This document shows, piece after piece, positions 434-64,000 of a stretch of 64,000 nucleotides of DNA. How positions within the stretch are numbered: position 1 is the stretch's first letter; every line of letters begins with the position of its first letter. Source of the stretch: Rhynchopus sp. YZ270_cl-10 (lineage: Eukaryota); the NCBI GenBank assembly GCA_964035575.1, contig OZ037833.1, positions 2,356,001-2,420,000 on the forward strand, in the 5' to 3' direction. The notes beneath the pieces were generated by a model. The model did no database searches and had not been told where the DNA came from. It saw only the letters and a list, made by a program, of their open reading frames with translations. Both the position numbers and the translations under genes were made by a program.

Positions 434-462
434 ATGTGTGTGCACGAGAGGCACATTCATCT
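434..462 (+). promoter_or_regulatory. ACGAGAG-loop hairpin, stem type A (representative copy)
   Basis: ATGTG TGTGC ACGAGAG GCACA TT CATCT; similar copies at 12674, 47023, 60316 and 62731. Confidence 0.6.
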
Positions 463-1564
463 TTACTGCTAAGCATGAGAGGCTTAGTATCCTTTTTACC
501 AACTTTTTGTTTTTTTCCCCCGCGAACTTTTTTTGTTGCACCGATCGTCTACTGAGGGGGAGTCCGGTACAGCAAGGCATTGTACTTCAAAAAGAACCAC
601 AAATTGTCCTCAACTGGAGCTTTTATTATTATTATTTTTTGAAAGTACGGGCTTTGTATTTGAAGTCACATTTTTTGGATTTGTGGGGTCTGTTGCGCTT
701 TTTTTTTTTTGTGGTTTTATCTATCCAAGCAACAGTGTTCACCGAACTGAGTAACGACCTTCAAGCACACCTTCAATGGATCTAGTTTTGGCAGCGACCT
801 GCTCCTGACGAACGCCTTGGTGCAAAGGAACTAACTGCTGTGGTCGAACTCAATTCCTTTGATGACTCGAGGCCCCACCTTCCACCTGCTGTGTGATGTT
901 CTCCTGTACCCTGCACCGTCGCTCCTGAAGGATGTGACATTTGAGTGCATTCCCCGCTGGGTGATTGTCGCAACAAAACGAAAAGAAAAGAAAAAAAAAG
1001 TACACAAGCAAACTCTTTGAATCAGTCTGCTCATCTTCAAATTTGACAAGATGTGTATGCAGGAAGGCATATTCATCTGTTTCAAAAAAAAAATTCTGAC
1101 GATTGAAAAAATGTACGCACTCATGTGCGGCATATTCGTTTTCTGAACATTATCCACCCATTCTGTTAGGTGACTAAGCGCACAGCGAAACTTAGGTTCA
1201 TCTTGCAATATTTTTTTCCCCCCTCTCTAGTACCTGCGTGTGTCGGTGGAGGCGTTTGCACTTTCTCTTTTTTTTTCTTCTATTTTCGCGGCAGCTGTTT
1301 TCCCCCCCAAATCTTATGAGCTACATCTGTCTGTCCCTCCATTACCACATCTCCCGCCGTTTTTTCCCTTCTTTTTTTTTAAAGATGTGCGTGCGTCGCG
1401 AAAACCCATCTTTCCAAATTTTCTTTTAGTGCGAAATTATTATTTGTTTTCTTCCAGCGATTTTTTTTTTTCGGCAAAAAAAATTCACGCGCATTGCAAA
1501 ACAAAACCAAAACCAAATTAGGGGATGAAAGTTGTGTGGATTTATTCAATGAATCCTATAACTA

Positions 1565-1667
1565 CATGACGGTGAAGTTAATGACTTGACTTATGGTTTA
1601 CCGTTGGCTTACAACGGTGAAAACGACAAGTAAAACCACAAGTCAGGTCATTTGCTTCACCATCGTG
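1565..1667. repeat. imperfect ~35-bp inverted repeat (MITE-like)
   Basis: CATGACGGTGAAGTTAATGACTTGACTTATGGTTT pairs with AAACCACAAGTCAGGTCATTTGCTTCACCATCGTG. Confidence 0.6.
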
Positions 1668-2348
1668 TGGGCACTTCTTTTTTCACCCCCCTTCCCCCTT
1701 CCCCTTCCCCCCCTTTCCACCATTTGATGCATAGATGCTACAGGGTACTTTTGCCATCAGTGCAAAACCATCTCCGTTCCAACAATGTATCTGATTGAAA
1801 CCCTGCGACATAGAACTTCTGGTATGTCGTGTGTAATTTGAACATACGTAGAGGAAAGACAGGCCTCAAATCTTTGACGCTGTAAATGAGTCCGATTTTT
1901 TTCCAGTTTTTAGTGCTCATTTTAGGGGTTAACTCTAAAGAATTATATGACCACACCCACAGTCGAATAGATTTTTCTTTCTTGACATGGTTTGTCTTCT
2001 GAGGCTTATTTCCGTGTTTTTTTTCTTTTCTCTCTTTTCTTATTGTATTCTTACATCTCTCGTTCTCTTGAGTTCGACTACCCCTTCCCCTTCATTGTCA
2101 AACAAGACAATATCATGAAGGCATTCACAAAAAAACCACACGGTTTAAGTAAGCGTTGTTTTTGGAGAAATAATGCGGAAAAAATCTGTCTATTTTCTGT
2201 TTCTGTCAGTACCTGTTGTGTTAGAAAAGTGGGGCGGGGGGTGAGGTGTGTAGTGTTCTCACAGTACTATCGAACGCTGCATATTTTGATATTAGCGCTT
2301 TCCCTTTTCCCCTATTCTGGGCAAGGGATATTTTAACCGTGGCCTTTT

Positions 2349-2384
<36 letters not shown>

Positions 2385-2677
2385 GCTCAGAAAACCCCTC
2401 AAATGACTTTCTTGTTCTTCGTATTGTTGCTGAGAAGGTTATAGGGGGGTGGGGGTTTAAGCTCCCCGTTCTTTTCTTTTTGTGATATCTCTCCATTCAT
2501 CCATTCATCCATTCATTCTTTCCGGTTTTCTGTTGTATATGAACCAAGACCCAACCTTTATCATCTCTCTCCCCCCTCCCCTCTCTCTCTCCCCTCCTCC
2601 CCACATCAAGCCAACAGAAGGGACACAAACATTTTTGCAACATTGAGTGGCTTTCCAATTCAACCCCGTCTTTAGAA

Positions 2678-5600: not shown

Positions 5601-6731
5601 TTCAAAAGATCCCCCTCGAGTCCAGATGCCCCCTCGACGGCAGAACCAAAGACGAAGTCAGCAAGGTCGAAGCAACCGCCTTCCTCCTCATCAGATCTAT
5701 GGTGTTCAACCTGCTTAAACGTGAGGACACCATTGCGGAACACCTCAGGCAACCTCCGGCAGGGAAATACTCGGAGATGCTAGGCGAGTCTGTCAGCAAG
5801 GACGACCTGCAGGACCCTGTCAGGTGCCAGGTCTGCTTGCAACCTCTCCCGCAGCTTGGTTCCCCACCTTTAGCGACGACTGACCTCCTGGCTCGTACGG
5901 TATGTGATTTTTTTTGGTGTTGTGTTAGTGTTGATGTTGTACATTACTTTACTTTCACAGGGTAACGTCCTCTACATGTGCGTGAACGACACAGAGCTCC
6001 TACTTCTCAAAGATCACCCCTCAGAGCTCACTGAAGTGGTGGTTGTTGCCGCACTGCCACTCTTCTGCACATCTGCAGTGGTGGACCCGCAGCTCTCTTA
6101 TCGGTATGTGTGTGGGGTTGTGGATGGAAAAGAGAGAGAGATGGGGGTATATTCTTCGCGAGAGGGCTATCGTATTTCAAGTCAGCTTCTTCGTTGGTGT
6201 GTCGTGAAAGCGAGATTTCGACAGTGTCGATGTACAGAATTTTTTTTGGGGGGGAATGATAAAGACCTACCTCTTGGGTTGTCACTGCAACAAAACACCC
6301 TTCCCTTCTCAGGTTGTACATTAGATGCCGCAATTTCGGTTGTCTGCTGAAGCTTGAGACACAGCAGGTGTGCCAGCAAGCTGCAGCTAAGGTATGACAT
6401 TTTTGTTTTGCTTTTTCTAATTTACATTGTGCATTTGATTCAAATTTTTTTTGCAATTTGCAGTGCAATGTGAGCGTCATACATTTCCTCAAAATATTGC
6501 ATGACAATAGTATTTAGGGTCCGAAATGCCCGCTGTCTATATTACAGTCCAGGTACATCTGTACGTATCCCAACCTTTTTAAGGAATTAAGGACGTAATG
6601 TATCCCTATATTGCGATTTTTGTCGTATCCAATCCAAAACACAGTTTTCTTCTCTGTCGAACCGAATGCGCAAAGCGAAAACAACAGCGATGTGTCATGC
6701 ACTGCAGGATGGGAGAGGGCTCCATGCGTGA
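2678..6731 (+). CDS. CLEC16A: CLEC16A/GOP-1/TT9-like FPL-domain protein (4 exons: 2678-5899, 5961-6103, 6313-6391, 6645-6731)
   Basis: The N-terminus matches the FPL domain pattern (LVWEDQ..IFDIFLERNML..VQTQLLQTLYILIQNIKSPTSIFYLLSGNHINKLI..FDFDRDDELLSHFINFLKSLSLRLD..DSFPLY). Splicing at GTATG..AG introns 5900-5960, 6104-6312 and 6392-6644 gives an in-frame C-terminus (..RLYIRCRNFGCLLKLETQQVCQQAAAKFSSLSNRMRKAK..*) resembling the CLEC16A C-terminal region. The last exon is the least certain. Confidence 0.88.
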
Positions 6732-7307: not shown

Positions 7308-8304
7308 AAGTCAACTTTTCTTTTGTGCGAGTAAGGCAAAATTTTTATCCCTGCATTTTACCCGCTGGACCTGACCTCCGCTGAGTCCCCCGTATTTTTA
7401 CTCGGTGATATTAGTGGAGTGGAAAGCCCTTTACTACAGAGCACAAAAACAATCGGTATTTTTTTTTATGTTGATTTTTGCGGGGAAGAGGGAAGTGGCA
7501 GTGGAGAGAGATCATATTTTTACAGCCCTTCACTTACAAATGATGTTTTTTTACGATAAACTAACTTTTTCTGACCTGTTGTGCCTTGGTATTGAGACTC
7601 GCCCTTTTTGCTTTAGTATTCCATCCCCCAGAACTGCCTCGACACAAAAGAACGGTGGAGATCATCCTCGGGTGTCTACACTAATACAACAAAAATAACG
7701 GAAGCATACAGGGTAGACAGGAAATTTTTTTTTCCAATTCTGATTCCGCTTTTTTGTGTTTTCTCTCCTTTATTTTTGTTTTTGCATTTATTTTTGAGTC
7801 TCGCCTGTGACCAAGTAGGTCCGGAGAAAGGAGGGTTTTTAGTGTTTTCTGAATATTTCTCAAAAGAAAAAGAAAAAAGAAAAAAGAAGGTTTTTTTTTA
7901 GTAGAGTGACAAAACAGAGACAATAATATTATAGTGAGTTTCCCCCAATACCCTCAATATCTCCCCCTTCCCAGTCCAATTGTCCGTTCTGTTCATTCTG
8001 TTCACGCCTTCATAGCTACACGTTTATCTATTTTCAGCCATCTCTGAGTGGAGAAAGTCGATGGCGGCTCAATCCCTCTTTTAAAAAAAAAAAACACAAG
8101 CGTTTTGTTTCTTTGGGGTTTGCCTGCCCACAGAGATTTACATTTTTTTTCCCTCCATACATTTTTAAACCGTTTCAAAAAAAGATGGCCACAGTAAGAT
8201 CTAGGTTTTGTTCTAGGGTACACTGTCACGAGAGGGTATTTCAACTTTTATTTTCTTGTGATGTTTCAAACAAAAGGCTGTATAATAAGATGTCTATAAC
8301 TATA

Positions 8305-10060
8305 CATAGCGCTCCACTTAGACTCTAACTAGATAATTAGAGTCGGCAGTTCGAGTATAATTAGAGTCTTTAAAACTCTAACTGAACTCTAATACTCTAA
8401 CTGGACTCTAATTAGAGTCTAATTAGAGTCCTATAAGAGGGTCAATAAAGAGGGGCACATCAATCAATGCTATAGCCATCAACCCAGGGGGCATAGCTAG
8501 TGCAAGAAATTCGACTTTGTAATCCAGAAAGTCTGTTCTCTGCTTGCAGAGAACCAGACACAAGAAAATATTGTTTGTTCCCCCAGAAAACCAGTGCACA
8601 ATTCACACTCCTTGTGGGTGGTCTTATTGCCTTTCCCTCCCTCCCTGGCCGGACCCCAGGGAGTTTACTTTCCGCAAAAAAATTTTTTTTTGGCAAAGAC
8701 AATTTTCAGCCAAAAAAAAATTTTTTTTTTGGGCTCACATGGGCCCAAAAATGCAACAAACCGAAAAATTTTGATGTTTTGAGCACCACATATTTACCAA
8801 CTGGTTACTTTCCCTTTGGGAAAGTGATCTCCCCGGGAAATCACTTTCCGGGGGGGGAAAATAGCACTTTTTTGCATTTTAACGCTCGGGAAAGTGCCTA
8901 GTCGGGAGGTAAAGCCTCATCCCTCCCTCCCAAGGCCCCTCGGGAACCCCTCGGGAAAACAAAAAATGCCTCGGGCCTTCGGCCCTCGCTGCATTTTTTA
9001 TTTTCCCTCTGGGATCCCTCGGGACCTATGGGAGGGAGGGAAATAGCTATTTTAGCACAGGCATTTTGGCCCAGGGGCATGCACTTGAAGCATGGCTATT
9101 TAGTGTGTATGGGGCAGTGTTGTTTTGTTATGAATTCTCTTTGGTATTGTCGATCGCGGGTAGTTGTTCAACGCGAGGCTTGGATCTCTCCTGGGTTCAT
9201 AAGTAGTATTTCTTCGGATGAAATGAACGTATGCTCGCTATAGATTTCCCGTCAACACAGCCTTTGATACTGGGATTACCCCTTCGACCCCTTAGTGGTA
9301 GTTAAATTCGATTGATATTTACATTCCTACAGATGAAAGAACAAGACACCACTTCTGTACCCGCGCATCAACATTTGTAGAAAATTTTGCACCCCAAACA
9401 CCTTCAATAATGCCCGCCAAAAGGCGCCCCTTGTTGCTGGGAGTTTCTCATGTTTGATACCTGCACAGCAGGCATTCCTCTGAGTCCAACGCTGCTTGGC
9501 CTGTCTGCGGCGTTGCACCGAAGGTGCACATAGAGTTTTTGCATCGCATTCCCTAATGTATGGGGCACTCACACTTGAGGGCATGTGCCACTGCGCGGGT
9601 CTGAGTACCTGGGTACCCATAGCTGAGAATAAGCCGAGTCCCGGTACTGGGTACTAGGTACAGTAGGACTAGGACTAGGCCCCCACCCTCCCGCGACCGG
9701 GTCCCCGACCCGCTTTCAGGCGGACCACAGCGCCTTCACATATTGTGTCCCAGTCCGGCTGAGAACTCGGTTCCCCAAGTCTTATTTTCAGCTATGTGGG
9801 TATCTGGGCACCTGGGTCCTACAGAGGAACCTTAGGGGAACCGGTTCCTTACGGCGTTTGCACCTACAAGAAGCCTGTTGTTTTACTCTAATTAGACTAT
9901 AATTAGAGTGTAGTTAGAGTCTAATTATGCTCTAACTGCACTCTAATTATAGTCTAATTGAAGAAAAGCGACTCTAATTATACTCTAACTGGACTCTAAC
10001 TGACTTGGCCCAAAATCCCAGACTCTAATTATACCCTAATACTCTAATTAGAGCGCTATG
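8305..10060. mobile_element. composite non-autonomous TIR element with ACTCTAA/TTAGAGT subterminal arrays
   Basis: TIR CATAGCGCTC / GAGCGCTATG flanked by TATA; dense ACTCTAA(T/C)T repeats at 8320-8430 and 9885-10050. Confidence 0.72.
9618..9796. mobile_element. small hAT-like MITE nested in the 8305-10060 element
   Basis: TIR CATAGCTGAGAATAAG / CTTATTTTCAGCTATG (1 mismatch); 8-bp flanks TGGGTACC and TGGGTATC. Confidence 0.65.
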
Positions 10061-10268
10061 TATATATAACCCTATGTTTCTATTTTTTGTTGGAAAAAAA
10101 AGGCTGGGAAAAGGGTATTTTATTTGCAAATATCGCTTTCCTTAGTCACTCACCCCCCACACACTACCGGGGCTTTTTTGAGTATTGGTTTTCTGTAATA
10201 TGCCAATCCTGATGTGTGTGCAGAGGAACATTTATTCAAAGGTTCGTTTCGGTCGACCTTATTGTTAA

Positions 10269-10621: not shown

Positions 10622-10783
10622 ATGGCTGAGGAATGTGACACCTCGCTTGTGGAGGACTGCGATGCGCATATTGGCGAGATTACCAAAATGCAGACACACA
10701 CCACCTCGCTTCGGCAGCAACTTCAAGACCTTGCAGCTGAAGTACAGACCAGCACCGCACACTGCAGAGAGCTGCTTGCTTAG
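10622..10783 (+). CDS. possible 53-aa small ORF or orphan terminal exon (MAEECDTSLVEDCDAHIGEITKMQ..)
   Basis: Balanced-GC, coding-like stretch within T-rich DNA; the peptide looks helical/coiled-coil. No recognised family. Confidence 0.3.
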   Translation: MAEECDTSLVEDCDAHIGEITKMQTHTTSLRQQLQDLAAEVQTSTAHCRELLA

Positions 10784-10928: not shown

Positions 10929-11979
10929 ATGGGTCCCGCGCAAGGTAAAGAGTCGCGCGCAACGTATGACTCGCAGCGACGGAGGAGTGATAGGACGCCG
11001 CCCTCCGCTGAGGGGCAGCCGGCTATTCGGACGGAGGAGATCACGGCTACTGGGGGGGCGACACCGCCGGTGGACAAGCCTGTTGCTGCTGCTGCTTCGA
11101 CGGCACCTATTCCAGAGACAAAATCTCAAAATAAACGACAAACACCATCTGGCCTCAGCAGCATCAGCCTCCGCGCTGTTCAAGCAACCTGCAACAAAGG
11201 CGAAGGTGTCGCCACCGTTATCAAATGGCCCAACAACAAACCCGGCAAGGTCTCCGTCGAGGGCACCTTCACAAACTGGAACAAAGGGATAATAGAGCTT
11301 CAACGCAGCGACAGTGAATACATCTCCTTGGTCTATTTGCAGCCGGGGGTGCACGCATTTCGCTACGTCGTTGACGGGATGGAAGCCATCGACGAAGGAC
11401 AACCCAAGATCGAACATGAAAAGGGCCTCTTCAACACTATCACCATCCCCGAAGCGGGAGGGACCATCATGGTGAGTGATGAGGAATCGCCTGCAGGGTT
11501 TGCGTCAGGGACAGGGCCCAAGGTGTACTCCTCAGCGGACCCTATAGAACGCGAGAAGTACTCACAGACGCGCTGGCAGTTCGAAGAAACCCGCAAGCTG
11601 CCGCCCCTCTTCCCCCCTCACCTCCGCTTCACCCCTCTCACCTCCATGCCTCCCTCGGAGGGGCGCCCCACACAAGAGCGCGTCCTCCCCACACCCTACC
11701 ACGTCACAATCAACCATATGTACTTCCAAGCACGCGAAGATTACAACGTCATCGGTGCAACCTACCGCCACGGAGAAAAGTACGCGACTGTCGTATACTA
11801 TAGGTCCCAAGAAGTATGTTGGCGTATTTTTATGATGTCAAATGCTAAGGTTTGTATTTTTCAACATACTAATAAAAAAACAGGAAAGCGAGAAGGATGC
11901 GTTGAGAGGACATGCTGACCCCACCCTCGGAGTTTCTGAGCGACAGTTTATTGGTACCTCACGGGAACAGGATTACTAG
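10929..11979 (+). CDS. AMP-activated protein kinase beta subunit (CBM48 glycogen-binding + ASC domain); exons 10929-11813, 11884-11979
   Basis: CBM48-like segment VIKW..PGKVSVEGTFTNW..LQRSDSEY..LQPGVHAFRYVVDG, followed by the ASC-type PPLFPPHL..LPTPYHVTINHMY..GATYRHGEKYATVVYYR. The MG start at 10929 fits N-myristoylation. Intron 11814-11883 (gtatgt..acag). Confidence 0.88.
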
Positions 11980-26050: not shown

Positions 26051-26598
26051 AAGGGGTGCCCCGTCGATTATTTACCTTTTGAAAAGGTAAATAATACATG
26101 GAGGGTAAATAATACAATATTTGGACTTTATTAATTCAAAAGGTAAATAATATACGGTTTGACCTATTGCGGGTAAACGGTCCTGTTTTCGATGCACACC
26201 CACTAGACCCCCGACTCACTGCACAACAGATTTTCACACCCCGCCCTTCCCCCTCCCCGGAACCCCTCTCGCCGTCATGTTGAACGCCTCGACCCTTGCA
26301 GAGCTGAACCACCAGTGGGATGAGGTGCGCCGTGGCCGCTGCGAGGTGGTCGTCGGCCTCGACGAGGCAAGCGTGGCGAGCCTGGACCTGGACGTTGAGA
26401 GCTTCAGCGACACGTCCAGTGCCTCAGAGCTTCACCCAAAAAAAGCGGGGCGGAAAATTAATTAATTAAATGCCAATTCAAAAGGTAAATAATACACGAA
26501 AGGTAAATAATACAATGTTTGGCATTAAAAAGGTAAATAATACACGAAGGTAAATATTACAAAAATTCAAAAGGTAAATAATCGACGGGTCCCCCCTT
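26051..26598. mobile_element. MITE with ~33-bp TIR and AAGGTAAATAAT subterminal repeats
   Basis: AAGGGGTGCCCCGTCGATTATTTACCTTTTGAA / TTCAAAAGGTAAATAATCGACGGGTCCCCCCTT, TA-flanked, with a GC-rich coding-like remnant at 26277-26440. Confidence 0.78.
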
Positions 26599-26940
26599 TA
26601 TTATTTTGTTGGTGCCTGCGACAGTCCATTTACTTTTTTTTTTACTTCTCCGACCAGAACGAGGTCTCCCGTTCATGAAGGGCGCATCGAACAAATCTGT
26701 GACGGGATATTTGCGATTTTTTTTTTGAGTGCCTGCTTACATATTTACTGTAAACAACACACCGCACAGGGGTTCGATAAACCACGAAGTGTCGCTAGCT
26801 GTGTGTGTTTTTTTTTTTTAAATCACTTTTCTCGCCCCCCCCCTTTTTTTTTTTTTGTATGTGTTCAACAGGCTCTCCGCTAGGATTTCCGATTTTGAAA
26901 ATATTCTGTTGATGGTCCACGTTGGTGGGGTACATGCTTG

Positions 26941-35402: not shown

Positions 35403-38018
35403 CCTAGGGAAGCGAGGGGAGGGTCGGTTTGCACTCTTTTTGCGGTGGAATAATTTTATGGTGTGGCTGAATGGGAGGGGGGGTGCACAACGTATGCAAG
35501 AACTGCGCATCACCCCCCCCCCTTCACGCCACACCAATGATGACATTTTTTATAATATGGTTCTACAGTGTTTCCTGCGTTCTTCCAGCGTTTTCTAGGG
35601 AGGGTGGAATAATTTTTTCCCGCAAACCCCTTTTTGCAAAAAAATTTTTGGACGGCATCTGTTCCATTTTTTCTTTAAATAAGTGTAACAAATTTTCTAA
35701 CAAAAAAAAGCAAAACAAAACAACAAAAAGTTCACCCCATCAAGTAGATCCACCTAGTCTAGTCGGAGAAGGGTGTGGTATGAGGCCAGGCTGTCAAGCC
35801 CCTTTCCCTCATTCCCCACAGCCCCCCCTCCCCTCCCCCTTCTCTCTCCAATTTCCAAAAGTGCACGGCTTTTTTAAAGTGACCAAGCGCAGGCTTAGGA
35901 TCACATTAAGCGTATTGTGCTTTATTTTAGTCAAAAACCCCCCTCTCTAGTGGCTGTATTGTGATAATTGCCCTTCACAGTACATACCCATTACAATGCG
36001 ATGGTGGGCAGTTCTCACAATATAGCCACCACCACCCTCCTTTTGCTCCCTCAATGTAGTAGTAGCTGTCCATAGGTCTAGTTGGAGAAGGTGTACAATG
36101 TGTACGTGTGAGGCATACTCATCTTGGTTCAGAACCTTGTGCTTTCAAAAACTATTGTCTTTTTCTCAAAGTAAACGTTGCACTCTTGGGTTTATAATTT
36201 TTTGTCAAATTATGTTTACAAATGTTTACAATGAAGAGTGCAACAACAAAACCCGGTGTGGGATGGAGGGGAGTATTTGCACTGTCAAAACAGAAAAAAG
36301 CCTCACACCTAATATAAAAAAACACGGTGGATTAGTCAGGGGGACTAGTAGTTACGCTAGGAGTGCCTCTGACTAGTCTGTCGTGAAGATATGGACACCC
36401 CAGACACCCCCTCTGGTGGTGTTCAATTCAACGCGAATTAAATTGCGACCTTTTAAAAATGGTATCAATGTGAGTTGCAATTGTACCTACAGTCCTTGAG
36501 ATAACCTGGCAACGCGCGGTTTTTTAAAGATGACTAAACACGAGAGGCTTAGGGTCATCTTCTAAACTTTTCTTTTATTTGTTCAGACGATTCAACAACT
36601 GGAGGATCGGTGCTGCGTCCACAGAGGCGTTTTGCACTTCCAACTTTCATATTATTATTGACGCTGTCAAGCCCAAAGACAATACCCATGATTCGGTACT
36701 TAATTTCCTCCTTTTTTTTGAAAACTTGGTTGTATTAGTGTAGACACCCGAGGATGAACTCCACTATATTTTTTTTTGTTAATCCTCTACTGGCTTCCTT
36801 GCAAGCCAACCATTGATCTCAGATTACCAAGAATTTCCCTTGAAATTCCCGAAGTCGACCAATTTTGTCTGCGTTTTGACGAAAAAAACACACTAAATTG
36901 TCTTTAACGAGTTAGATAGTGAGGGGGCTTCTTCACCATGAGGATAGCACCTTTTGTTTCTGCTTGCTGACTCAGTTGTGTATGGGGAATATAAAGTCTG
37001 GCGTTTCCGTATCTTAGGAGCGATCTGTTATGCACACCGCTCCGTGCATTGGCTAGGTGACAATGTTCACTCTTGCGCTCTCTTTTGTTGTTTTTACTTC
37101 AGAGGTCTTTTTTGTGATCAAGGTGACTAAACAGAGGCTTTAGATTCATCGTCGTTCTTTTTTTTTGGGTGAAGTAAGGCTTACGCCAGCTTTTCCTGTT
37201 ATTTCTCCATGAAAGAGGAACTGTTGGGCCTTAAAAAGCTGTCATTCAAAGCCTGTTTTCAGAGAAGAAGATTACCTCGCAAAAGACAGAAAAAAAAATC
37301 TGTGCGTGCAAACAAAGCCGTATCTCTGTGTCTGTGTGTTGTGCATTGCACCTCATATCCCATCCAAACCCTTTGCATCCCTCTCTTCATTGTTGTTAAA
37401 GATTAAGTCTTAGTAATAGCGTGAAAAGCGCGTCTGTGTTCGCAAACAGACGTCTTTTTGCTTACCACACAGTACCTGCATCCGCGAACGGTGACGCGTT
37501 TGCATTTTTTCAACTGCTCTTTTGTCAACGACTTTCCCTTTTTTTATGTTTTTTTTGTCGTAGATACGAGACACATTCATCACCTCCCTTCTGCCTCACA
37601 TTACCCAAACCCTTTAGTGAGAAGGTATCCTCCGAAAAACGGTCCACATTAAGTTAAGCTTTGCAACGATGTTGGCTGGACCGACGCCACTTCTTTTTGT
37701 ATTTAATCTTATTTGGTTGACTGCTTTTGGGGTAGGGTTTTGCGGGGCCACTTCTAAAATAAACTCTCAAGTAAATTGTGTAAAAAAAATATCCAAAGAA
37801 TCTCTCTGTAGTGCAACATAACAGCATAATACGAATTAACGAAAAAAAAAGAAAAATTCCCCCTTTGTTCAAAAAAAAATGAAGATGTGCTTCTCATGGC
37901 CTACACAACATTTCTTTTCCTTCCCCACACACTAAGGTCCACTGTCACGAGAGCGCTTTGTATATTCAACTTCCCCCTACTTTTTCCAGCTTCAACACTT
38001 TACACATTATTTAACACT

Positions 38019-39800: not shown

Positions 39801-40676
39801 TGCTGTGTTTGGGACGACCCTTTGATTAAAGTTGTGTCTTCGACAAGCGTCCTGTGTCTTACGCACAGCGCGTTTCTCTAAAGCCTTATTTGTTTGTTCT
39901 GTTCATAATATATTATTTTGAAATTTGTGCTCAAAGGGCCTATCCTTTTCTGAAGCCTTTTCCAGCATTTCTCTACCTGAATTAGGGGTTGCTGCGTGTT
40001 TTTAAAAACATGCATGAAAATGCTCTGTCTTGCTGTAGGTGTTCCCAAAATTATTACTTTTCATAATGCTTTCTTTTTTATAGGTACACTGTCACGAGAC
40101 ACTTGGTTGAGCTCCACTATAAGTTTTTTTTTTTAATTCCTGAAATGTACTGTGATAAGAAGCTAGACATAAAGAAAGCCAATGATATGATCTTTGATAA
40201 CAAGTCTTTCCCTCCTGATCGCAAACATATTTTTTTACCCATTATTTGGCTGCGTTCAACGAAAGGCACTGTTTATTTTATTATCAAGATCAGTTGGTGG
40301 ATGCTCGTGTCTAGTTTTACGTAACATCTTTTAGTTGTCAGAACCAAAACATTGGAGGCGCTTTGGCCAAAAGGGGAGCTAAAAAGCTTTGTAGTTGTCT
40401 GTTTGATTCACAAATACCAACACCAATTGCAGTTCACGCTTTTTCTTTTTGTTACCCACGGCTTTGAGCGCCCAAACACACAGACCCTATCTTTTCCCCC
40501 AATGATGGAGAACGTACGGTACGTGATGCAAACAATGACAAGATTAAGCCAAATCGGTTCTGACCACAAAAACAACGTCACACCCCTTTTTACCTTCCAC
40601 ACCCCATCTCCCAGCTATTCTTCCTTCTCATCCACTCAGACAGCTCTTGGAAGACTATGTGTCAGTTCTGTGCAAA

Positions 40677-48759: not shown

Positions 48760-51549
48760 ATGGCTGTGCAGTGGAGCGTAGCGTTGTGCGCTTTGCTGTG
48801 TGTTGTTCCTGTAGGGGGTTTTTTGGATGAAAGGGTGTCAGGGACGACGTGCGAGAAGGATGTGGGATTTGAGGTGACGTCGCATGTAGAGTGCCAGCAG
48901 TATGCACTGCAGAATGGGTTGGTGATGTACGATGTGAAGTTCACGAACCACAACCGTGGCTGCAACATCATCACAGACTGCACGCAGCTGCCCGGGGGCG
49001 ACTGCGCAGAGTTCCCCAACGGCTCTGTGATGTACATCAACTCAGACATCTTCTACGTTGATGCAGTGTGCGAGACGTACTTCCCATGCCTCTGTAAAGA
49101 CTCTGCCAAAGCCGCACCACCCCTCCCCACCCTGCCCGCCAACATCGTCGAGGTCGCAGAAGGCTCAGGAGATAAGTGTCCGACAGAAGTCTCGATGCTT
49201 GTCTGTCTCCAGTACGCCACCAGCAAAGGGTTGAAGTTCTTCGCGTCAGCCAGCCTTGCCGTGAAGGGCTGTGTGTACGATACGAGAACAAATGAATTGC
49301 TGTACTCAATAAACGGCGACCTCGCGAGGTGTGGCGTCGAGAAGGATGTCATGTGCGTATGTGCGACGGAGACGACAGCGCCCCTCACGGCGGCACCTCC
49401 CACAGAGCCTCCGCTGACGTCTGTGCCGACAGTGGTGCCGACGCAAGCGCCAAAGACAGCAGCACCACTCACACTGCCGCCAGCGACACAGCCGCCAGCA
49501 ACTCAACCACCTCTGACGCAGCCACCTGCGACACAACCACCTGCGACACAGCCGCCGTTGACACAACCGCCAGCAACTCAACCACCTCTGACACAACCAC
49601 CTGCGACACAGCCGCCGTTGACACAGCCGCCAGCTACACTGCCGCCTGTGACACAACCGCCAGCAACTCAACCACCTCTTACGCAGCCACCTGCGACACA
49701 ACCGCCATTAACACAACCGCCTGTGACACAGCCACCTCTGACACAGCCGCCAGCAACACAACCGCCACTGACGGTATCACCACCCACACAACCACCTGCG
49801 ACGCAACCTACACAACCGCCAGCAACGCAGCCCCCAGCGACAGTATCACCACCGACACCTGCACCCGACACGTTCTCGCCCGCGACGCCGTGGCCAGCAA
49901 CACAGTCCCCAGCAACCCCCGCCCCGCTGACGGTGTCGCCCCCAACACCTGCGCCGACGACACCTTGGCCAGCAACACTGCCACCGCAGACACTTGCACC
50001 GTTGACAGTGGCGCCGACATCGACCCCCACACAGCCGCCCACTGCAGAGCCCACTGCTGTGCCTACTTCGATTCCTACCGTTGCACCGCAGACACTTACA
50101 CCGCCTCGCACGGGGCAGGTGATTGGGGGCAACGGTGGTGGTGTGGTGGCAGGGGTGACGGTGCTGTCTGCTGCCTCGGCTGCTTCTGCGGGGAGGATGG
50201 CGCTGCTGGCTGGGGTGGAGGCGTGCCGGCTGGACGTCGAGCATTTGGAGGAGCCGGAGTACCTGCCTTGGACTCTGCATCCCATACGGCTCACTGTCCA
50301 CGGGTCTGAATGGGTAGGCGCTGTGGTGGCGAACCTGGCGATCTGCGTGGTTGCGTCCTTCTTGGGCTGGGCGGCCGTCTACGCTGTACGCTTTATTGCA
50401 CCCACCTACGGCGACGCCTTTCAACAGCGCATGGATGTGCAGGGGATGCTGCGCATGCCTTCTGCGGTCCTCTTTTTGTTCACCATTCTGTACCAGGGCA
50501 CTTCTCTTGCATCTCTTCGCATGATGGTTGCAGGGACGCAGTGGTATTACGAGGTGGTAGGGGGGTTTGGCATTCTTGTTTGTTTGTACGTTCCTGTTCA
50601 TTTGCTTCTTCAATTCCGCAAGAACGTGCCGATGTACGCACGCTATGCCTTAGATGACCACAACCAAGGCAAGATGACGCACTTCCTCCTTGGCAAAGGC
50701 GAATGGGTCTCCACCGAACAGGAATACCACTGGGTGCAACGCTACAGCGTCATTGTGCGTCCCTACAAACAGCGCTACGTGTGGTGGGTCTGCATTGAGT
50801 ACCTCTCCATGCTTCTTCTCTCCGCCGCAAGCAGTGCACGTCTCAACGGGCACGTCAAATGCTGTGCACTCAAAACCACGAGCGCATTCATCCTATTCCT
50901 CCTCTTCGCAGCTGGGCTCTATATACGCCCATATCACAGACCACGGGACAACGTTTTGGCGCCTTTAATTAATTTGACACAGACCATTTCTGTTGTTTTG
51001 GTTGCGACGGGGTTTTGTAAGAACGATTCGTTGGACTTGGAGGAATGGATGTTTCGACGTTCAGAAGAGGTTTTGGTGGTGTCGGTGGTGATGCTGCTTA
51101 TCAAGCTTTGCTTGGACCTGGTAGCAGAGATCTATGTCTTCTACACCGGACGGCGTGTCACCATGCAGCACGCAGAATACCTCAGAAAGCCTGGCCGTGG
51201 TGCAGGCGACCCCATCCTCTACGGTGAAGAGGCAGAAATGATCGCCATAATCCCGGACGACTTCTCCGTCCTTGAAGACCTTTCGCCACGATCCATGCCC
51301 GCATCCCCGCCAGCATACGTCTCGCAAGCCCCCTCCCTCCTCGTACCCCCGCCCTCAGACATGCCGTCAGTCCCATCGCTCGCAGACCCCTTAATCTGTA
51401 GAGACACTTCCTCAACGTCCCTCCCAACACTAAGCAGTATCAGTGCAAAAGTTTCTAGTGTATGTTTGCGGGGGTGGTGGGGGGTTTGTATTTTCAGCTT
51501 TTATCTTTCATGCAATGTAATGAAACAAAAAGGCGGCGTTCGATCGTAA
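48760..51549 (+). CDS. surface multi-pass membrane protein, paralog of the 40677 gene (TQPPA/TQPPL stalk); 3' end uncertain
   Basis: 929-aa ORF with the same architecture and motifs. A probable donor gtatgt at 51460 means the true C-terminus may differ from the ORF end. Confidence 0.82.
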   Translation: MAVQWSVALCALLCVVPVGGFLDERVSGTTCEKDVGFEVTSHVECQQYALQNGLVMYDVKFTNHNRGCNIITDCTQLPGGDCAEFPNGSVMYINSDIFYVDAVCETYFPCLCKDSAKAAPPLPTLPANIVEVAEGSGDKCPTEVSMLVCLQYATSKGLKFFASASLAVKGCVYDTRTNELLYSINGDLARCGVEKDVMCVCATETTAPLTAAPPTEPPLTSVPTVVPTQAPKTAAPLTLPPATQPPATQPPLTQPPATQPPATQPPLTQPPATQPPLTQPPATQPPLTQPPATLPPVTQPPATQPPLTQPPATQPPLTQPPVTQPPLTQPPATQPPLTVSPPTQPPATQPTQPPATQPPATVSPPTPAPDTFSPATPWPATQSPATPAPLTVSPPTPAPTTPWPATLPPQTLAPLTVAPTSTPTQPPTAEPTAVPTSIPTVAPQTLTPPRTGQVIGGNGGGVVAGVTVLSAASAASAGRMALLAGVEACRLDVEHLEEPEYLPWTLHPIRLTVHGSEWVGAVVANLAICVVASFLGWAAVYAVRFIAPTYGDAFQQRMDVQGMLRMPSAVLFLFTILYQGTSLASLRMMVAGTQWYYEVVGGFGILVCLYVPVHLLLQFRKNVPMYARYALDDHNQGKMTHFLLGKGEWVSTEQEYHWVQRYSVIVRPYKQRYVWWVCIEYLSMLLLSAASSARLNGHVKCCALKTTSAFILFLLFAAGLYIRPYHRPRDNVLAPLINLTQTISVVLVATGFCKNDSLDLEEWMFRRSEEVLVVSVVMLLIKLCLDLVAEIYVFYTGRRVTMQHAEYLRKPGRGAGDPILYGEEAEMIAIIPDDFSVLEDLSPRSMPASPPAYVSQAPSLLVPPPSDMPSVPSLADPLICRDTSSTSLPTLSSISAKVSSVCLRGWWGVCIFSFYLSCNVMKQKGGVRS
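49480..49850 (+). repeat. coding 15-bp tandem repeat (TQPPA/TQPPL)
   Basis: ACACAACCGCC / ACACAGCCGCC units encoding the mucin-like stalk. Confidence 0.9.
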
Positions 51550-53289: not shown

Positions 53290-54483
53290 TTTGAAAAAAA
53301 GCGTCTATTTTAATAACGTTTAGGATAATGAGCTCGAAACCGGTCGCAATGGAAAGATTTTTGAATTTTCGGTATATATGAGTATGAGACTAGGAGTTTG
53401 GTCTCAAGGGAAATACCCTATTCCCTAGAGGGGTCCCTCGGGCGAGACGCTTTTTTTCATGCATTCTGACGCAGCACCCGGAATCACCGACAAATGCCGC
53501 ACACCGCGCGGGCTGCAAAATCATTTCAGAAAAGGAAAACTCTTGTTGCATTGTACGCAGATTCACTAAAATCTTTCAAATAACAAAAAAATCGAGCAAA
53601 AAGACCTACCTGGCTTCTGCGAGTGGTCTGCCTCAGATACACACCCCAAATAGGGGGTAAAAATAGGGGGTAAAAATCACAAAACGCTCCCCGGACAAAA
53701 CACCCAAAACGCGCACCTACCCGCACCGACCGCTTCAAGGGTCTGTAGGTGCGGAACTGCAGACGCCCTCTGTGTTACACCATTGTCTCGTCAACACTGA
53801 GACCTGCCGAAGGTGGTCTGAAGATCTCGACCCACTTCGCCTCGAGCAATTCCATCAAGGAACGGCACTTGTGCATGGGTCATTACTCGCTGTGTCTTCG
53901 TACGTTGTGGTGCCGGTAAATTTTTCTACACACAAAAAAACTTCTTTGGGGTTTGCGAAGACCCCAAGAGCACACAAAAACAAGCTGGAAAGTGGTCAGC
54001 TTCAAAGCCTGCTGCTAAGTCCGCAAAAAAGCAAAGACGCGTGTAGGTGGGGGTCTTGGGTAGTTTGTCAGGGGAGCGTGTTGTAATGTTGACCCTATTT
54101 TTACCCTATTTTTACCCCCTATTTGGGGGTGTGTATCTGAGGCAGACCACTCGCAGAAGCCAGGTAGGTCTTTTTGCTCGATTTTTTTGTTATTTGAAAG
54201 ATTTTAGTGAATCTGCGTACAATGCAACAAGAGTTTTCCTTTTTTGAAGTGATTTTGCAGCCCGCGCGGTGTGCGGCATTTGTCGGTGATCCCGGGTGCT
54301 GCGTCAGAATGCATGAAAAAAAGCGTCTCGCCCGAGGGACCCCTCTAGGGAATAGGGTATTTCCCTTGAGACCAAACTCCTAGTCTCATACTCATATATA
54401 CCGAAAATTCAAAAATCTTTCCATTGCGACCGGTTTCGAGCTCATTATCCTAAACGTTATCAAAATAGACACTTGTTTTCAAA
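53290..54483. repeat. ~400-bp near-perfect inverted repeat (arms ~53290-53720 and ~54043-54483)
   Basis: The arms are reverse complements with few mismatches; the same peptide text appears in ORFs 53526-53738(-) and 54047-54247(+). Confidence 0.92.
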
Positions 54484-56029: not shown

Positions 56030-56030
<1 letters not shown>

Positions 56031-56623: not shown

Positions 56624-56761
56624 ATTCTGTTTGGGTAAAGCGAAAATAAGACTGGTCGTCATTATATCAAAAGGACCGAACACCTTTGGTTTATTCTGGT
56701 TTTTTCATTACATTTCAGGTCAAGAAAAAATGGTCAGACCAGATGTCTTTTCTTTCTTTTT
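56624..56761 (+). repeat. ~140-bp near-identical direct repeat; second copy at 62591-62729
   Basis: ATTCTGTTTGGGTAAAGCGAAAATAAGACTGG..GGTCAGACCAGATGT present twice with about 2 differences. Confidence 0.9.
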
Positions 56762-59085: not shown

Positions 59086-61665
59086 GCTTTGCTTATGCTC
59101 TAAGGTGGAAACCACAGCTCGGTTCAATGGCCATTGATTGAGTGCATATACGAGGCGGTGCAGCGTCGAGCGAAGCGTGTTCAGCCCAGTAGCCCCCGAG
59201 GATTGCAACAGCAACGGTGACGAGAGGTGCGGCACCCCGTGAATCAAGGTGCCGAAGCCGGAGGGTCGGTCATCTTCCCAATTTTTCTTTTTTCCGTTCA
59301 GTATTCAAGTTTCTTTATCTAGTTTGTTACTTTTTTTTTTTTTTGGCACTGATGATTCAGTACAGCATCAATCACAAAGTCAACAGAACGGTGGATGTAC
59401 GCAGCTCGCAACTCCATGTTGTTTTGAACAATTGATAACGTGTAGACACCTCGCTTTTTTTTCGTGTGAGCACCACGCAGCCGTACCTCGCCTATCTCTC
59501 GTTTCGTGGATACCGTTACTTTATTTTCAGATGTGTATACACGTGAAGTGTGTTCATCTTTCTACTTTTCTTTTTCTTGTTAAATGAGTTTATGTTCCTT
59601 TCTGGATGATGTAGACTTACCCCGAGTTTGCATCGTCGTGCTGATCAAACGTTTAGTTTCCGAGTAATTTTATTGTAGTGGTCAGACCAAGGGTCGCCTA
59701 TTCCTTGCCACGCTCAATGGGACGAAGTGTGCCGTCTGTGTATCCTCACTAGGTCAGGCCAATTATGCTGCCACATCCTGGTCTGATGGTGTGCTGCCTG
59801 TAAGGACTTCCGGAGTGCCGCATTGCACTGCGCGAACCCCAAGGAGGAAACCCTTCCGGGAGTCGTGTAGAGATCACTATCACTATGACGTAGACCCCTC
59901 TACTGTTCGCGTGGGATTCCCCCCCTGCGCAAGGAGCTGTCTGATGTTTCCGTGTTTCATTGGCGTCGGGCAGTAAATGTGCGTCGCCACACCAATTATT
60001 CACGAACATGCCGACACGGTACCAAGTGATGTCAAGTGCGGGCCTCGAGCTCCATCCACTGTTGCATCTCTTCCGCTCGGCAGTTGGTGAACTTTGGGTA
60101 CGTCTTTTTTCAACACTCAGTTTTAGGTTTTGTAGTTTTCTATTTTTTTTTCTTTTCTTTTTTGGGATGATCATTTTGTAGGTGCGCGTATCTGGGAGAG
60201 AGAACTCGGTTGTGCCAACACGGATACTGGTTATCTGTTACCTGAGCAGATCCTTCATGGCAGTCGTTTCTTTAAATGATCATTTTTTTGTTTTTCGAGT
60301 TTCTTTCTTTCTTTTGATGGTGTGTGCACGACAGCACATTCATCTAACAATTTGACTAAGCACGAGAAGCTCGGGGTCTTATTTTTCTTCTTTTTTTTTT
60401 TTTTGTGACAACTGCCTTGCAAAGGTTGTAGGGGAGGAAATGAAAACATATCTGAGTTGTGCCCGAATTTTTTGGTGTGAGCGATGTAAACACGACACAA
60501 CTTATTCACAGAAAAGTTTTTGATTTTGTCCCTACACACTCCACAAAAATCCGGTGCGATCAACGAAAAATTCTTTTTCTGATTTCGTTTCTTTCTTTAT
60601 CAGACTAGCTTAAACTCAGATGACAGTTTTTATTTTTTTGTTAAAAATTGATCCCTGCCTGTGTCTACCATAACCTCCTCTAACATAGCAACAGGCCAAA
60701 CAGTTTTATATCCCCCAACTCGAAACTCGAAAAACAAAGAATGTCATTGTGTGGTTGAAATTAGTTATAAAGTATTTCCTACGCGGACCATTTCCCGTGA
60801 TGTCATTGTATGTGTTGTGAGTTTTTTTATATTTTTGTTATAGCTTGCAGGGTTTTGTGGGAAAAAACTTTTGTGTGTATTTACTGATACAGTAAAAAAA
60901 GATTCATTGCTTCGTGTGGGACACCAAACAAGCACTGCTCATGATCTGCATAAGACGGGACAGAAGGAATCATTCAGCACCGAAAGTTTTATTTTTTTGC
61001 ATATTGTTTGACCGCTTTTTATTATTATTTTTTTTTGCCCTCGTTTGCTTCCAACAGTTACACCAAAGAAAGGGCACATATGTTGTGTCCTAACAAATAC
61101 CTTTCTGTTCTCATGAATTGAAAGGATATGCGGTGTGGTCAACGGTCCACGGGAAACCCTGGGGAACTGGGTTGCTGACCGCACCAATACGAACTTGATT
61201 TTTGGACAATGAGTTTTTTTTTTTCTCTTCAAAATGTACTTCTTTTCTACAATTTTGTCAGACCAGAATTTCTAGTTTTTTTCATCTCTGCCACACTCAG
61301 GGATGAGATGTGCTGTCTGTAAGCATCCTCGCCTTCAGGTGACATTGAGCGCAGAAAAAATCACCCGCTGGGGTGCTTATTGGCGCAAAAAAGAAATTAT
61401 CATTTTTCAAAACTCATTTGTTCAAACTCGTTTGTTAGGTGTGCACGAGAGGCATTTTTTCACAGATTTTCTTTTTTTTTTTTGTCATCACAATTCAACA
61501 CTTTTTTCTTATCAGACTTTTCCTCCTTTTTTTCTTTTTTGAAGAAAAAGAAAAAAAATAAGGGGGTGCAAATGGAGTGGCTACCGAAGATCACCGATAG
61601 TCAGCGTCATGTGTACACAGCGTAGGTTTCAGTGAGGGAGGGGGAGGGGGGAAATACACGGAGTA

Positions 61666-61872
61666 CACGAAGGGACCCAGTGACAAGTGAAAATGACAAG
61701 TGAATGACAAGTGAAAAAGGTGACAAGTAAATTACTGGTCATGACAAGTAAATGGCCTACAGCCCAATAGAAAATCACTTGTCATGACAAGTGACTTATT
61801 TGTCATTTCACTTGTCATGAATATGACATGTGTTTCACTTGTCACTTGTCACTTGTCACTGGGTCCGTCGTG
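61666..61872. mobile_element. MITE/foldback element of TGACAAGTGA repeats
   Basis: Ends CACGAAGGGACCCAGTGACAAGTGA / TCACTTGTCACTGGGTCCGTCGTG; internal GACAAGT repeats switch orientation at the centre. Confidence 0.72.
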
Positions 61873-62279
61873 TGTAGTACATCTATTAACATCTGTACTT
61901 CATTGGTCACGTACCAGAGCCCCCGGATGGGGAGGGTTTTCCTGCGAGATCTGCCAACCGATCTCTGATAGCTCTCGGAAAGACAACACGTTTCACTGCT
62001 TTTTTGAAAGATGTCTGCACGAGAGGTTTCATCTTTCAAGTTTTTTTTTTTTTTTCATCTGTTTTTGCCAGCCCCTCCGCTACGTTTTCAGATTTTTTTT
62101 GAGTTCTGTTGCGGGTGTTTTTTTTCACCCTGCGCCAGTGAGTCTTATCCAGGGATTCAGATTTCAAAATAGGGGGTCAGCTGTTTTTGTGCCCAAAAAA
62201 TTTTCAGCACTGCTGACCAGGTACATTGGGAACATAGGGAACTGTATTTTTTTTTGCGAAGAAAAAAAAAAATCAAACA

Positions 62280-62431
62280 AATGGCGCCGCAGGCGAAAAA
62301 AAATATAGGGTACAGTGTAAAAATCTAGCTTTTTACAGCACAGAGTCACACATCGAATCCTTTTTTGCGGAGCAAAAAAGGAAATATGGCGCCGCAGGCA
62401 AAAAAAAATTGAGGTACAGCCTGGATGGTGC
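62280..62431 (-). repeat. inverted dispersed copy of the internal segment ~51904-52053 of the hAT MITE
   Basis: GGCGCCGCAGGC..GGGTACAGTGTAAAAAT..CAGAGTCAC..TTTTTTGCGGAGCAAAAAAGG is the reverse complement of the 51904-52053 segment. Confidence 0.75.
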
Positions 62432-62475
62432 GGTCAGCAACCCAGTTCCCCATGGTACTCTCGTGGTTCAACCAT

Positions 62476-62518
<43 letters not shown>

Positions 62519-64000
62519 AAAATTTTCAGACTTCTGTTGCGCCGCAACAGAACTTTATACGGTAGCGGAGCCCCTGGTTTTTGCTGAATCATTCTGTTTG
62601 GGTAAAGCGAAAATAAGACTGGTCGTCATTATATCAAAAGGACCGGACACCTTTGGTTTATTCTGGTTTTTTCATTACATTTCAGGTCAAGAAAAAATGG
62701 TCAGACCAGATGTATTTTCTTTCTTTTTTCATGTGTGTGCACAAGAGGCACATTCATCTTACAAGTTTTCATTTTTTCTTTTATATTGTCTCATACTCGG
62801 GCTGTTAGCTAATTCACTTCCGCTTCTGGCGAAAATCCGTGGGAAAAAAGTTAGGGAGATATCTAAATGTTCGCTGTTCTCAATCACTTCGATTGTTCAA
62901 ATAAAGCGATTTTTTTGGGGTTTTTTATTCACCACCTAAGACCCAAGGGCTGAGAGGTATCTTCAGGGCTTACAAGGCCTATATAAAGCCATTTTTTTTT
63001 TGTCAAGGGTGCTCATCAGAAAAATATGAAAATATGTGCGAATTATTCCAAAAAAACAGCCCTTTTGAGGTGGTTCGGCAAAAAATTCCCGCCTGTGGCA
63101 ATCCTAGACCTATTTTCACCCTTTTCTCCGTACAGGGGGCTGAATACCCACTGTTTTTTTTTTCCAGGGAAAACATTTGTTACAGGATGTCGGAATTTTC
63201 CGGAAAATTTTCCAGAATTAGCTGACAGCCTGCATAATCTACCCACACATCTGGAGATGATTCATGCAGTTTGAAACCATCTTTGTTGTCCTTCCCCTCT
63301 TTGGTGGCCTAATTGTGCATATCATTTCTTTTTGAAGCCGCGGTATTTTTCTTCTCTTTAAATTTTTGCTGGGGGTGTGTATTGTATTAAAACCCCCCCA
63401 GTAATGTAGATACTCAGCGAACATCAGTTTTTTTTTTTTTTTTACAAATGCGTGCAGAGTTTATTTTTCGATCCGGTTTTTCAGGCCTCAAGGGGGGTCG
63501 AAAATTTGTCAGCCGGGTCCCCACCTTAGCTCAAGTTGGGGGCCTCCGGCGGAATGTGAGAATTCCGCGGAGTTCGGCACTTCACTGATATTTACACGAG
63601 GCAGACGGGGCATACGAATTATCAGTAACCTCAGTACATTTACAAAAGAAACGGCGGTCATGGCACCCATAGGTTCCTGGCGAAGCCACGGTACGCAACA
63701 TTTCAAAAATTTGCGCTTAAAATTACACATTTAACCGCCAAACTATGTCATGGGAAGGGTGGGTTGCAAGCTTGCGCCGCAGGCGCACGGTACGCTACTT
63801 CGGCGCTTGACTAATTGAGTCGCGTTCTGGCTGCACTTTGTTCACGAGGCACGAGGCTGAATATGGCCCCATGGCGAGTGTGGGTGCATGCCGGGCCACC
63901 CCCCCTGTAAATTTTTCGGCCCCCGGATTTTTTTTTTCTCCACCCCCTGGACACGTCTGAAAAACCCCCCAAGGGGGGGTCGAACCCCCCCCCCCCCCCC

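Follow-up and report, generated by a model that had tools for sequence, protein, structure and literature searches.

Small imperfect hairpins that fall into several classes, form mosaic chains and leave no target-site duplication are known from bacteria as REP sequences and BIMEs and as the ends of IS200/IS605 elements, and BIME units alternate in orientation. In IS608 the imperfect palindromes are strand-specific in their mismatches, with a guide AAAG at the hairpin foot and TCAA 3' of the hairpin (PMC3201880). HINE/DINE-1 elements, which are non-autonomous Helentrons, have T-rich targets, no duplication, a 3' stem-loop and variable terminal Ts, with Ts at both ends (PMC4067079). In the short interspersed elements (SINEs) that are partners of RTE elements (Au-like, Sauria, AfroSINE), and in the 3' stem-loops of stringent long interspersed elements (LINEs), a 3' hairpin is kept by compensatory changes, together with a CAA- or T-rich tail and a T-stretch upstream of the insertion (PMC6007223). 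SIDER1 and SIDER2 of Leishmania, euglenozoan relics of the ingi clade, are degenerate, lie between genes or in untranslated regions (UTRs) and are sense-biased in directional gene clusters (PMC2323293; PMC2689281); they have a T-rich motif upstream, a target-site duplication in only 18.9% of SIDER2 (PMC2323293) and an approximately 4-fold sense bias (PMC2689281). In the diplonemid Diplonema papillatum gene clusters are unidirectional, transcripts are trans-spliced, the median 3' UTR is ~800 nt long and the repeat content is 52%, and in diplonemids regulation of the long one-way clusters is thought to act via very long 3' UTRs, by signals that are unknown (PMC10161547).

Here we describe about fifty small hairpin repeats of four related types (A, B, C and D) lying between the genes of a 64,000-nucleotide stretch of Rhynchopus sp. 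YZ270_cl-10 (contig OZ037833.1, positions 2,356,001 to 2,420,000; hereafter the window). These hairpins are real and, as far as searched, undescribed, and most likely they are small interspersed mobile relics. Tentatively, and at somewhat less than an even chance, we propose as the source of these relics a miniature mobile element, non-autonomous and copied via an intermediate that was single-stranded and probably RNA. The DNA of the window is eukaryotic, nuclear and from a diplonemid, its AMPK-beta open reading frame (ORF; 10929-11810) being 62-64% identical to D. papillatum proteins. All recognisable genes are on the + strand, as are the Pfam-supported ORFs (FPL, AMPK-beta, DOMON, cytochrome b561-like and TRP-like), and only one gene cluster is represented.

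A sequence-only reading had listed 37 copies of three hairpin types, all in gene-sense orientation and outside coding sequence (CDS). By using iterated type-specific nhmmer profiles at thresholds of 12, 9 and 7 bits, with the reversed window as a control, 35 of these 37 coordinates were recovered at 12 bits or more; the copy at 10211 reaches 7.1 bits, and that at 33082, with an intact loop and chimeric arms, was missed by the A profile. A fourth type, D, absent from that list, has six clear copies. Lowering the threshold from 12 to 9 and then 7 bits takes the merged A-D matches on + and - from 46:0 to 50:1 and 56:2, and the reversed window gives 0, 0 and 1 matches, respectively. A covariance model built from 26 of the window's own copies yields, unfiltered, 37 matches at E<1, all on +, while at E<=10 four of 48 matches are on -, the best with E=1.5. 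Moreover, CACGAGAGG is found 13 times on + and 0 times on - in the window, and none of the 51 matches at 9 bits falls inside annotated CDS. The strand lock and the placement outside CDS were therefore borne out, with the reservation that 'gene-sense' is not separable from 'one chromosomal strand': because all window genes face +, a lock to genes and a lock to replication are indistinguishable. Non-coding T-runs exceed A-runs only by about 60:40 to 75:25; the counts are 76:52 among runs of 8 at a distance from the hairpins and 43:14 among T-rich 20-mers. Under this skew an all-plus outcome has a P of 6e-7 to 3e-4, with 28 clusters taken as independent, and T-tract skew alone cannot produce the 46:0 lock.

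The units are 35-45 bp long and sharp-ended, with a T-tract on both sides. Each is laid out as a T-tract, a lower stem of 6-7 bp, a small internal loop or 2-nt bulge, an upper stem of 3-6 bp and the loop, and ends in (C/A)AA(C/G)TT followed by more Ts, in agreement with the T-rich context and 3' (C/A)AACTT described before. The loop is ACGAGAG in A, B and C and a variant one letter shorter in D; as a common feature it holds at the level of types, since the exact ACGAGAG is found in only 15 of the 37 listed copies. The stems had been taken as three unrelated sequences, but they form two related pairs, A and B having the lower stem AAGRTG...CATCTT in common, and C and D the letters of the upper stem and internal loop. 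On the lower stem shared by A and B the upper-stem differences are compensatory pairs, as had been claimed, and the plain 2-nt bulge attributed to A is in the full consensus a 2x2 internal loop (G.T plus T.T). The consensus stems on + contain G.T oppositions and no A.C. As RNA, types B and C fold better on + than on -, at -12.7 and -6.7 kcal/mol for B and -7.4 and -0.9 kcal/mol for C, and so does type D (-11.4 against -7.2 kcal/mol). The RNA folds are clearly better than those of shuffled sequences only for A and B. As DNA, A and B give z -1.9 and z -2.3 against shuffles and D a weak z -0.5, whereas C, at -0.5 kcal/mol, is worse than 172 of 200 shuffles. At two places a unit is preceded by a further small hairpin: a C-like hairpin with a G/C-rich lead-in at 43270-43325, ahead of a type C and belonging to a subfamily seen at other loci, and a similar one at 43950, ahead of a type D.

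Four contig sets span the stretch, introns included, with long pieces free of differences, and since introns are covered and long pieces identical we read them as DNA of this organism. At the type A hairpin 62731-62770 the contig depth rises ~2000-fold, from ~100 to ~218,000, and then comes back down. For type A, 333 of the 721 contigs aligned in one set (X1) match only in part, their loose ends being T-tracts on both sides, with 'AAAG' at the 5' foot at an agreement of only ~0.5. For type B, 92 contigs have loose ends before 46074 and 74 behind 46107. Contig joints at other loci include B-B, B-C, B-D, D-B and B-A (among 15 of 457 joints). The partial matches and the varied joints indicate that the units are discrete and independently placed. 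Summed contig depth is not copy number, as overlapping short contigs may inflate it up to an estimated ~31-fold; judging from the partly matching contigs, each type probably has near-consensus copies at one to several hundred loci of the genome at least. Allele tables from the contig alignments hold one variant for B (45260 G>T) and none for A.

Other short repeats of high depth were also noted. Two of them, at 44060-44150 and 45450-45500, have one window copy each. Repeat E (~65 bp, T-flanked on both sides) lies at 36712-36777 (+), 7643-7706 (-), 30468-30533 (-) and, partially, 40097-40128 (+); it has the highest summed contig depth, 2.5 million against ~100, and of its two strands the A-flanked one gives the better hairpin fold. 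Since repeat E occurs in both orientations, T-tract insertion alone locks no repeat orientation here.

Decay was counted in 18 copies of A, 19 of B and 8 of C, each set against the consensus of its own type; D was not included. The loop is changed at 64 of 315 positions (20%) and the stems at 146 of 914 (16%; P=0.08), the loop being intact in 18 of the 45 copies. Single stem changes break a pair in 57 cases and keep it in 25; stem transitions keeping a + strand G.U are as frequent as those suiting only the - strand fold (15:15); and 10 of 17 double stem changes are compensatory, some of them recurring as subfamily variants. Even though the copies were selected by similarity, which biases the counts toward conservation, the decay of most of them is near-neutral and spares neither the loop nor the + fold. 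Because loops change like stems and the + fold is not favoured, most copies look like decaying relics. About six copies lie within 2 changes of the consensus, against a mean of ~6, and these are either young or selected. In the structure-model alignment 75.6% of cells pair, compared with 64% in shuffles and 38-52% when the alignment is slid, and the covariation score is 0.29 versus 0.16; as the alignment was built around the structure and a few types supply most of the signal, it reflects a handful of events. The covariation proposed earlier is real, but operates mainly between source types and subfamilies. Finally, in A and B erosion has affected the 5' arm twice as often as the 3' arm (90 versus 45 of 329 positions, A, B and C pooled, P=2e-5).

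These data can be joined in the following way. Identical stems at many loci, together with sharp ends, argue for copying; the near-neutral decay suggests that the shape mattered mainly to the copying agent; and the strand-specific G.T stems point to a single-stranded substrate. RNA is favoured because C folds only as RNA, because the 5' ends erode, because the tail resembles that of RTE-type retroposons, and because sense-biased ingi-clade relics with a T-rich upstream motif exist in Leishmania. The erosion of the 5' arm in A and B would then resemble that of 5'-truncated retrocopies. The copies also form chains, with 10 of 45 gaps at <=40 bp where 2.1-3.7 are expected. Mobility, the RNA route, the enzyme involved and the reason why the lock is complete are our inferences. 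Between the two possibilities offered by the sequence-only reading, an RNA cis-element or the relic of a tiny retroposon, the relic fits best and a working cis-element is unsupported for most copies, although a minority of near-consensus copies could be functional. In the proposed mechanism, sense copies would be transcribed passively within the polycistronic pre-mRNA, and a protein, most likely the reverse transcriptase of a non-LTR (long terminal repeat) element, would recognise the stem and the ACGAGAG(G) loop. The hairpin RNA has a predicted tail (C/A)AACUUUU, whose Us may pair with the A-tract opposite a genomic T-tract, the RNA then being copied there; this pairing would set the orientation relative to T-tracts, and same-strand chains may arise because each new copy brings another T-tract. 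Hairpin and loop would be constrained in a few source elements (the A/B and C/D pairs and their subfamilies) and not in most copies. As for the lock beyond the T-tract skew, insertion might be coupled to transcription or replication, or antisense copies might have been lost.

Several observations weigh against this retrotransposed origin. The RNA fold of type A is equal on both strands (-10.1 versus -9.8 kcal/mol) and that of type C is no better than shuffles (z -0.78). Type C is also without the 5' erosion (6 versus 8 of 56 positions), part of which reflects uncertain boundaries and variation among subfamilies. A target-site duplication is the usual trace of target-primed reverse transcription, and among 45 units there is no excess over a swapped-flank control (mean longest match 6.20 versus 6.18; matches of at least 8 nt across the flanks in 7 of 45 units versus 16%), although T-rich targets and age could mask such duplications. 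The contig loose ends reveal no upstream LINE sequence common to A or B copies, and the 21 window ORFs tested gave no reverse-transcriptase or transposase domain. The 46:0 lock is stricter than both the ~4:1 of SIDERs and the 60-75% T-tract skew. Furthermore, nine MITE-like zones (miniature inverted-repeat transposable elements; 15.6 kb, 32 T-runs) contain no hairpin copies and the other intergenic DNA (23.7 kb, 62 T-runs) contains nearly all of them; with zone limits of our own choice, this avoidance is not predicted by random T-tract targeting. A possible insertion event is ambiguous and suggestive only: the candidate filled site 62731-62770 and a candidate empty site near 56761 have a 10-mer in common after the A copy, the longest match in 46 comparisons, two of which gave 9 letters, and on the right-hand side only 13 of 16 letters agree. 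Both sites adjoin a 138-bp local duplication, 98.5% identical (56624-56761 / 62591-62728), whose second copy abuts the type A hairpin.

The same relics might instead have moved as single-stranded DNA by means of an HUH transposase of Helentron/Helitron2 or IS200/IS605/REP type, which we regard as rather unlikely even though it explains well the missing duplications and the strict lock. Such an enzyme would recognise the imperfect hairpin formed by one strand and join it into T-tracts that are exposed in single-stranded form, on the lagging-strand template or the non-template strand, giving no duplication and a strict lock (on this route see PMC4067079, PMC3201880, PMC5027513 and PMC10288648). 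The lack of duplication and the Ts on both sides match HINE/DINE-1, lagging-strand insertion yields an orientation bias (PMC5027513), and Helitron-like ORFs are reported in D. papillatum (PMC10161547). A and B begin with AAAG and many copies continue with (T)CAA, candidates for the guide and cleavage letters of IS608, but the AAAG is paired in the lower stem, leaving no free guide, and four-letter matches arise easily. Similarly, A/B stand ahead of C/D in 7:0 cases within 100 bp, as left and right ends might, but in 8:2 within 200 bp. Other difficulties are that type C does not fold as DNA, that the units have no subterminal inverted repeats and occur as direct repeats, single or in varying order, and that the window holds no HUH gene: no mobile-element domain (reverse transcriptase, transposase, HUH or TnpA) was found among the 21 window ORFs tested.

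That the hairpins are an RNA cis-element of the polycistronic transcript, bound at the loop by a protein that affects 3' processing, trans-splicing or stability, is in our view unlikely; in a variant of this idea they may have spread by mobility and been co-opted, with a minority of copies working. The strict same-strand placement outside CDS, the G.U-dependent + fold of B, C and D, the near-consensus copies and the avoidance of MITE-like zones are consistent with it. In addition, 21 of the 54 catalogued copies lie within ~1.3 kb downstream of a stop codon, a distance that long D. papillatum 3' UTRs span (PMC10161547), and SIDERs have been described as 3'-UTR regulators (PMC2323293). The decay argues otherwise, as the loop is kept no better than the stems and pair-breaking changes prevail, and so does the position of the copies, whose spacing from stop and start codons varies from 81 to over 5000 nt; 5 of 11 intergenic regions have no near-consensus copy, and 13942-15260 has no match at all. 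A spread only via local slippage or tandem duplication of gene-adjacent DNA would keep the orientation automatically, and the clustering of the copies would suit it, as would a report that in D. papillatum DNA next to genes is repeated in tandem (PMC10161547). It is very improbable, since flanks are unrelated beyond the T-tracts and similarity stops at the hairpin, sharp ends that largely refute it, and since the chains combine different types. Least probable, in our view, is that the hairpins are fragments or mimics of the sarcin-ricin loop of large-subunit rRNA, scattered like the 28S pieces of D. papillatum. The E. coli 23S gene contains the 8-mer ACGAGAGG only once, near position 2657, which we take to be the sarcin-ricin loop. 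About 3600 such 28S pieces have been reported (PMC10161547), but here the identity to the bacterial gene stops at 8 letters, the type D loop differs, and no Rfam rRNA match appears even at E<=10.

Known structured elements were compared on their anatomy, as usually described. An H/ACA-like snoRNA was rejected for having neither pocket nor box here, domain 5 of group II introns because the catalytic triad is absent, and the iron-responsive element because the loop differs. Relic spliced leaders were also considered but not favoured. A MITE was also discarded: the units have no terminal inverted repeats with duplication and do not occur in both orientations, in keeping with the earlier statement that such repeats and duplications are missing.

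The copies of the window are as follows, with profile scores in bits unless stated otherwise.

433..464, +: type A hairpin, near consensus, 33.8 bits
469..504, +: type B, directly after A, 5' arm lost, 17.0 bits
1051..1080, +: type A, degenerate, 17.5 bits
1167..1213, +: type B, loop variant, 32.7 bits
1228..1274, +: type D, not in the earlier list, 23.3 bits
1376..1423, +: type A, weak, covariance model E=0.07
6145..6184, +: type C, probably within an intron of the FPL-domain gene, 26.8 bits
7202..7235, +: type A, loop mutated, 22.8 bits
7275..7312, +: type C, identical to consensus, 38.0 bits
8215..8254, +: type C, 3' arm with 5-nt deletion, 33.7 bits
10212..10236, +: type A, weak, 7.1 bits
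10269..10312, +: type B, near consensus, 40.8 bits
10323..10361, +: type C, near consensus, last unit of an A-B-C chain, 36.1 bits
12286..12327, +: type B, 22.3 bits
12673..12705, +: type A, 27.9 bits
12720..12764, +: type D, degenerate, 25.3 bits
18644..18684, +: type B, 28.7 bits
24094..24130, +: type C, weak, loop replaced, 9.0 bits
33082..33112, +: chimeric copy in an intron, loop intact, arms not type A
35876..35912, +: type B, loop deleted, 17.9 bits
36096..36125, +: type A, not in the earlier list, 21.6 bits
36527..36570, +: type B, near consensus, 38.0 bits
36612..36650, +: type D, 25.3 bits
37120..37158, +: type B, 19.6 bits
37486..37514, +: type D, weak, 7.7 bits
37934..37970, +: type C, ~50 nt ahead of the next ATG, 30.7 bits
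40082..40120, +: 5' half of a type C, joined to part of a repeat E, 27.5 bits
43290..43363, +: type C (43325) with upstream C-like hairpin common to other genomic copies, 30.7 bits
43553..43583, +: type A, weak, 9.2 bits
43792..43815, +: type B, 3' arm lost, 14.8 bits
43964..44006, +: type D, 26.7 bits
45232..45274, +: type B, near consensus, 35.2 bits
46073..46113, +: type B, 34.1 bits
46568..46706, +: chain of B (46568), weak A (~46617) and B (46664), 32.4 and 13.2 bits
46978..47167, +: chain of B (46978), A (47022), A (47070) and D (47121), 26.4, 20.4, 15.8 and 25.8 bits
47304..47380, +: chain of B (47304) and A (47351), 14.0 and 18.7 bits
47490..47529, +: type B, loop shortened, 26.1 bits
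48485..48515, +: type A, not in the earlier list, 22.1 bits
52527..52562, +: type A, 19.5 bits
53089..53118, +: type B, loop deleted, 19.6 bits
53205..53244, +: type D, 20.0 bits
56096..56159, +: type A, weak, covariance model E=1.5
59246..59285, +: type B, weak, 10.0 bits
59531..59563, +: type A, two compensatory changes, 18.4 bits
60318..60383, +: chain of A (60318) and B (60349), abutting, 23.1 and 22.6 bits
61435..61455, +: type A, 3' arm lost, 17.6 bits
62009..62038, +: type A, internal deletion, 19.3 bits
62731..62770, +: type A, near consensus, candidate filled site in a local duplication, 31.8 bits

The neighbouring sequences deserve a brief description. Three paralogous genes encode DOMON plus cytochrome b561-like domains, with a varying number of DOMON domains (15227-18260, 30636-35402 and 38019-39800), and two paralogous single-exon genes encode membrane proteins that have a weak TRP-like domain and stalks rich in Pro and Thr (40677-43244 and 48760-51549). 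A receptor-like gene at 20311-23656 has no Pfam match, its C-terminal region being by eye of nucleotide-cyclase type, and a change of frame near 20700-20740 suggests a short intron. Directly before AMPK-beta, a 53-codon ORF (10622-10783) is likely a small coiled-coil gene with a weak Pfam match. A 47-bp stretch, 98% identical, lies just upstream of two unrelated genes (20182-20228 and 30706-30752), and a short interstitial telomere-like GGGGTT(T/A) run is located at 19780-19822. MITE-like inverted-repeat elements occur at 8290-10064, 29511-29932, 53290-54483, 26050-26600 and 61665-61873; those of the window include a 445-bp inverted pair (94% identity) and arrays of 11-bp subrepeats.

No described relative of the hairpins has been found as far as searched. 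Rfam, in which a relative had been thought worth seeking, gave 0 matches at the gathering threshold over the window and chance-level ones only at E<=10 on two stretches. Sequence-pattern scans found none in metagenome contigs, viral contigs and prokaryote genomes, nor did blastn in phages, all of them collections with few or no diplonemid genomes. Literature searches, covering listings and the papers cited here, likewise yielded no account of this repeat. ACGAGAG, the hairpin and a dispersed repeat of this kind are absent from the supplementary files examined for PMC10161547, and the repeat is not described in the passages of the diplonemid intron study (PMC12621601); the D. papillatum repeat list (PMC10161547, Additional file 1) or the supplements of PMC12621601 may hold a relative. 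A dense one-way family of hairpins is of interest either as a candidate UTR signal or as a mobile unit far below the typical size of eukaryotic non-autonomous elements. If the hairpins are mobile, their orientation rule is unusually strict, and the near-neutral decay lowers the chance of function for most copies.

In the comparison with the known systems, SIDERs are characterised by a 79-bp signature, an A-rich tail, vestigial 11-19-bp duplications and sense copies at ~4:1. The hairpins have in common with them the T-rich upstream motif and the sense bias, as seen in one gene cluster, but are only 35-45 bp long, T-tailed, without detectable duplication and locked at 46:0. Length speaks against the 79-bp 5' signature, as do the loose ends before A and B, which are T-tracts without shared sequence, the signature itself not having been aligned; the 3' side is T-rich instead of A-rich, and no duplication of ~12 bp exceeds the swapped-flank control. 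With HINEs they share the T-rich target, the Ts at both ends and the lack of duplication, but HINEs have 12-15-bp subterminal inverted repeats and an internal body, whereas each unit here holds only its own hairpin arms and is the hairpin alone, and the 21 window ORFs include no autonomous Rep/helicase partner. With RTE-partner SINEs they share the compensated 3' hairpin and the CAA/T-rich tail, but have no Pol III promoter body, the whole unit being the hairpin; no partner LINE was found, and a target-site duplication, which in such SINEs starts ~10 nt after a T-stretch, is not seen against swapped flanks. The likeness to REP/BIME and IS200/IS605 ends lies in small imperfect hairpins of several classes, with strand-specific mismatches, joined in mosaic chains and without duplication; unlike BIMEs, these are eukaryotic, their chains run head-to-tail on one strand, and the window has no TnpA-like gene. 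The hairpins fail the defining tests of SIDER, HINE, RTE-SINE and MITE, yet work like parts of each. With a low probability, they could represent a eukaryotic counterpart of REP/BIME: four families of ~40-nt mobile hairpins with a common protein-binding loop, whose insertion is confined to the T-rich sense strand where gene clusters are transcribed, so that diplonemid UTRs and spacers would receive a uniform RNA hairpin, partly co-opted by the host for post-transcriptional control.

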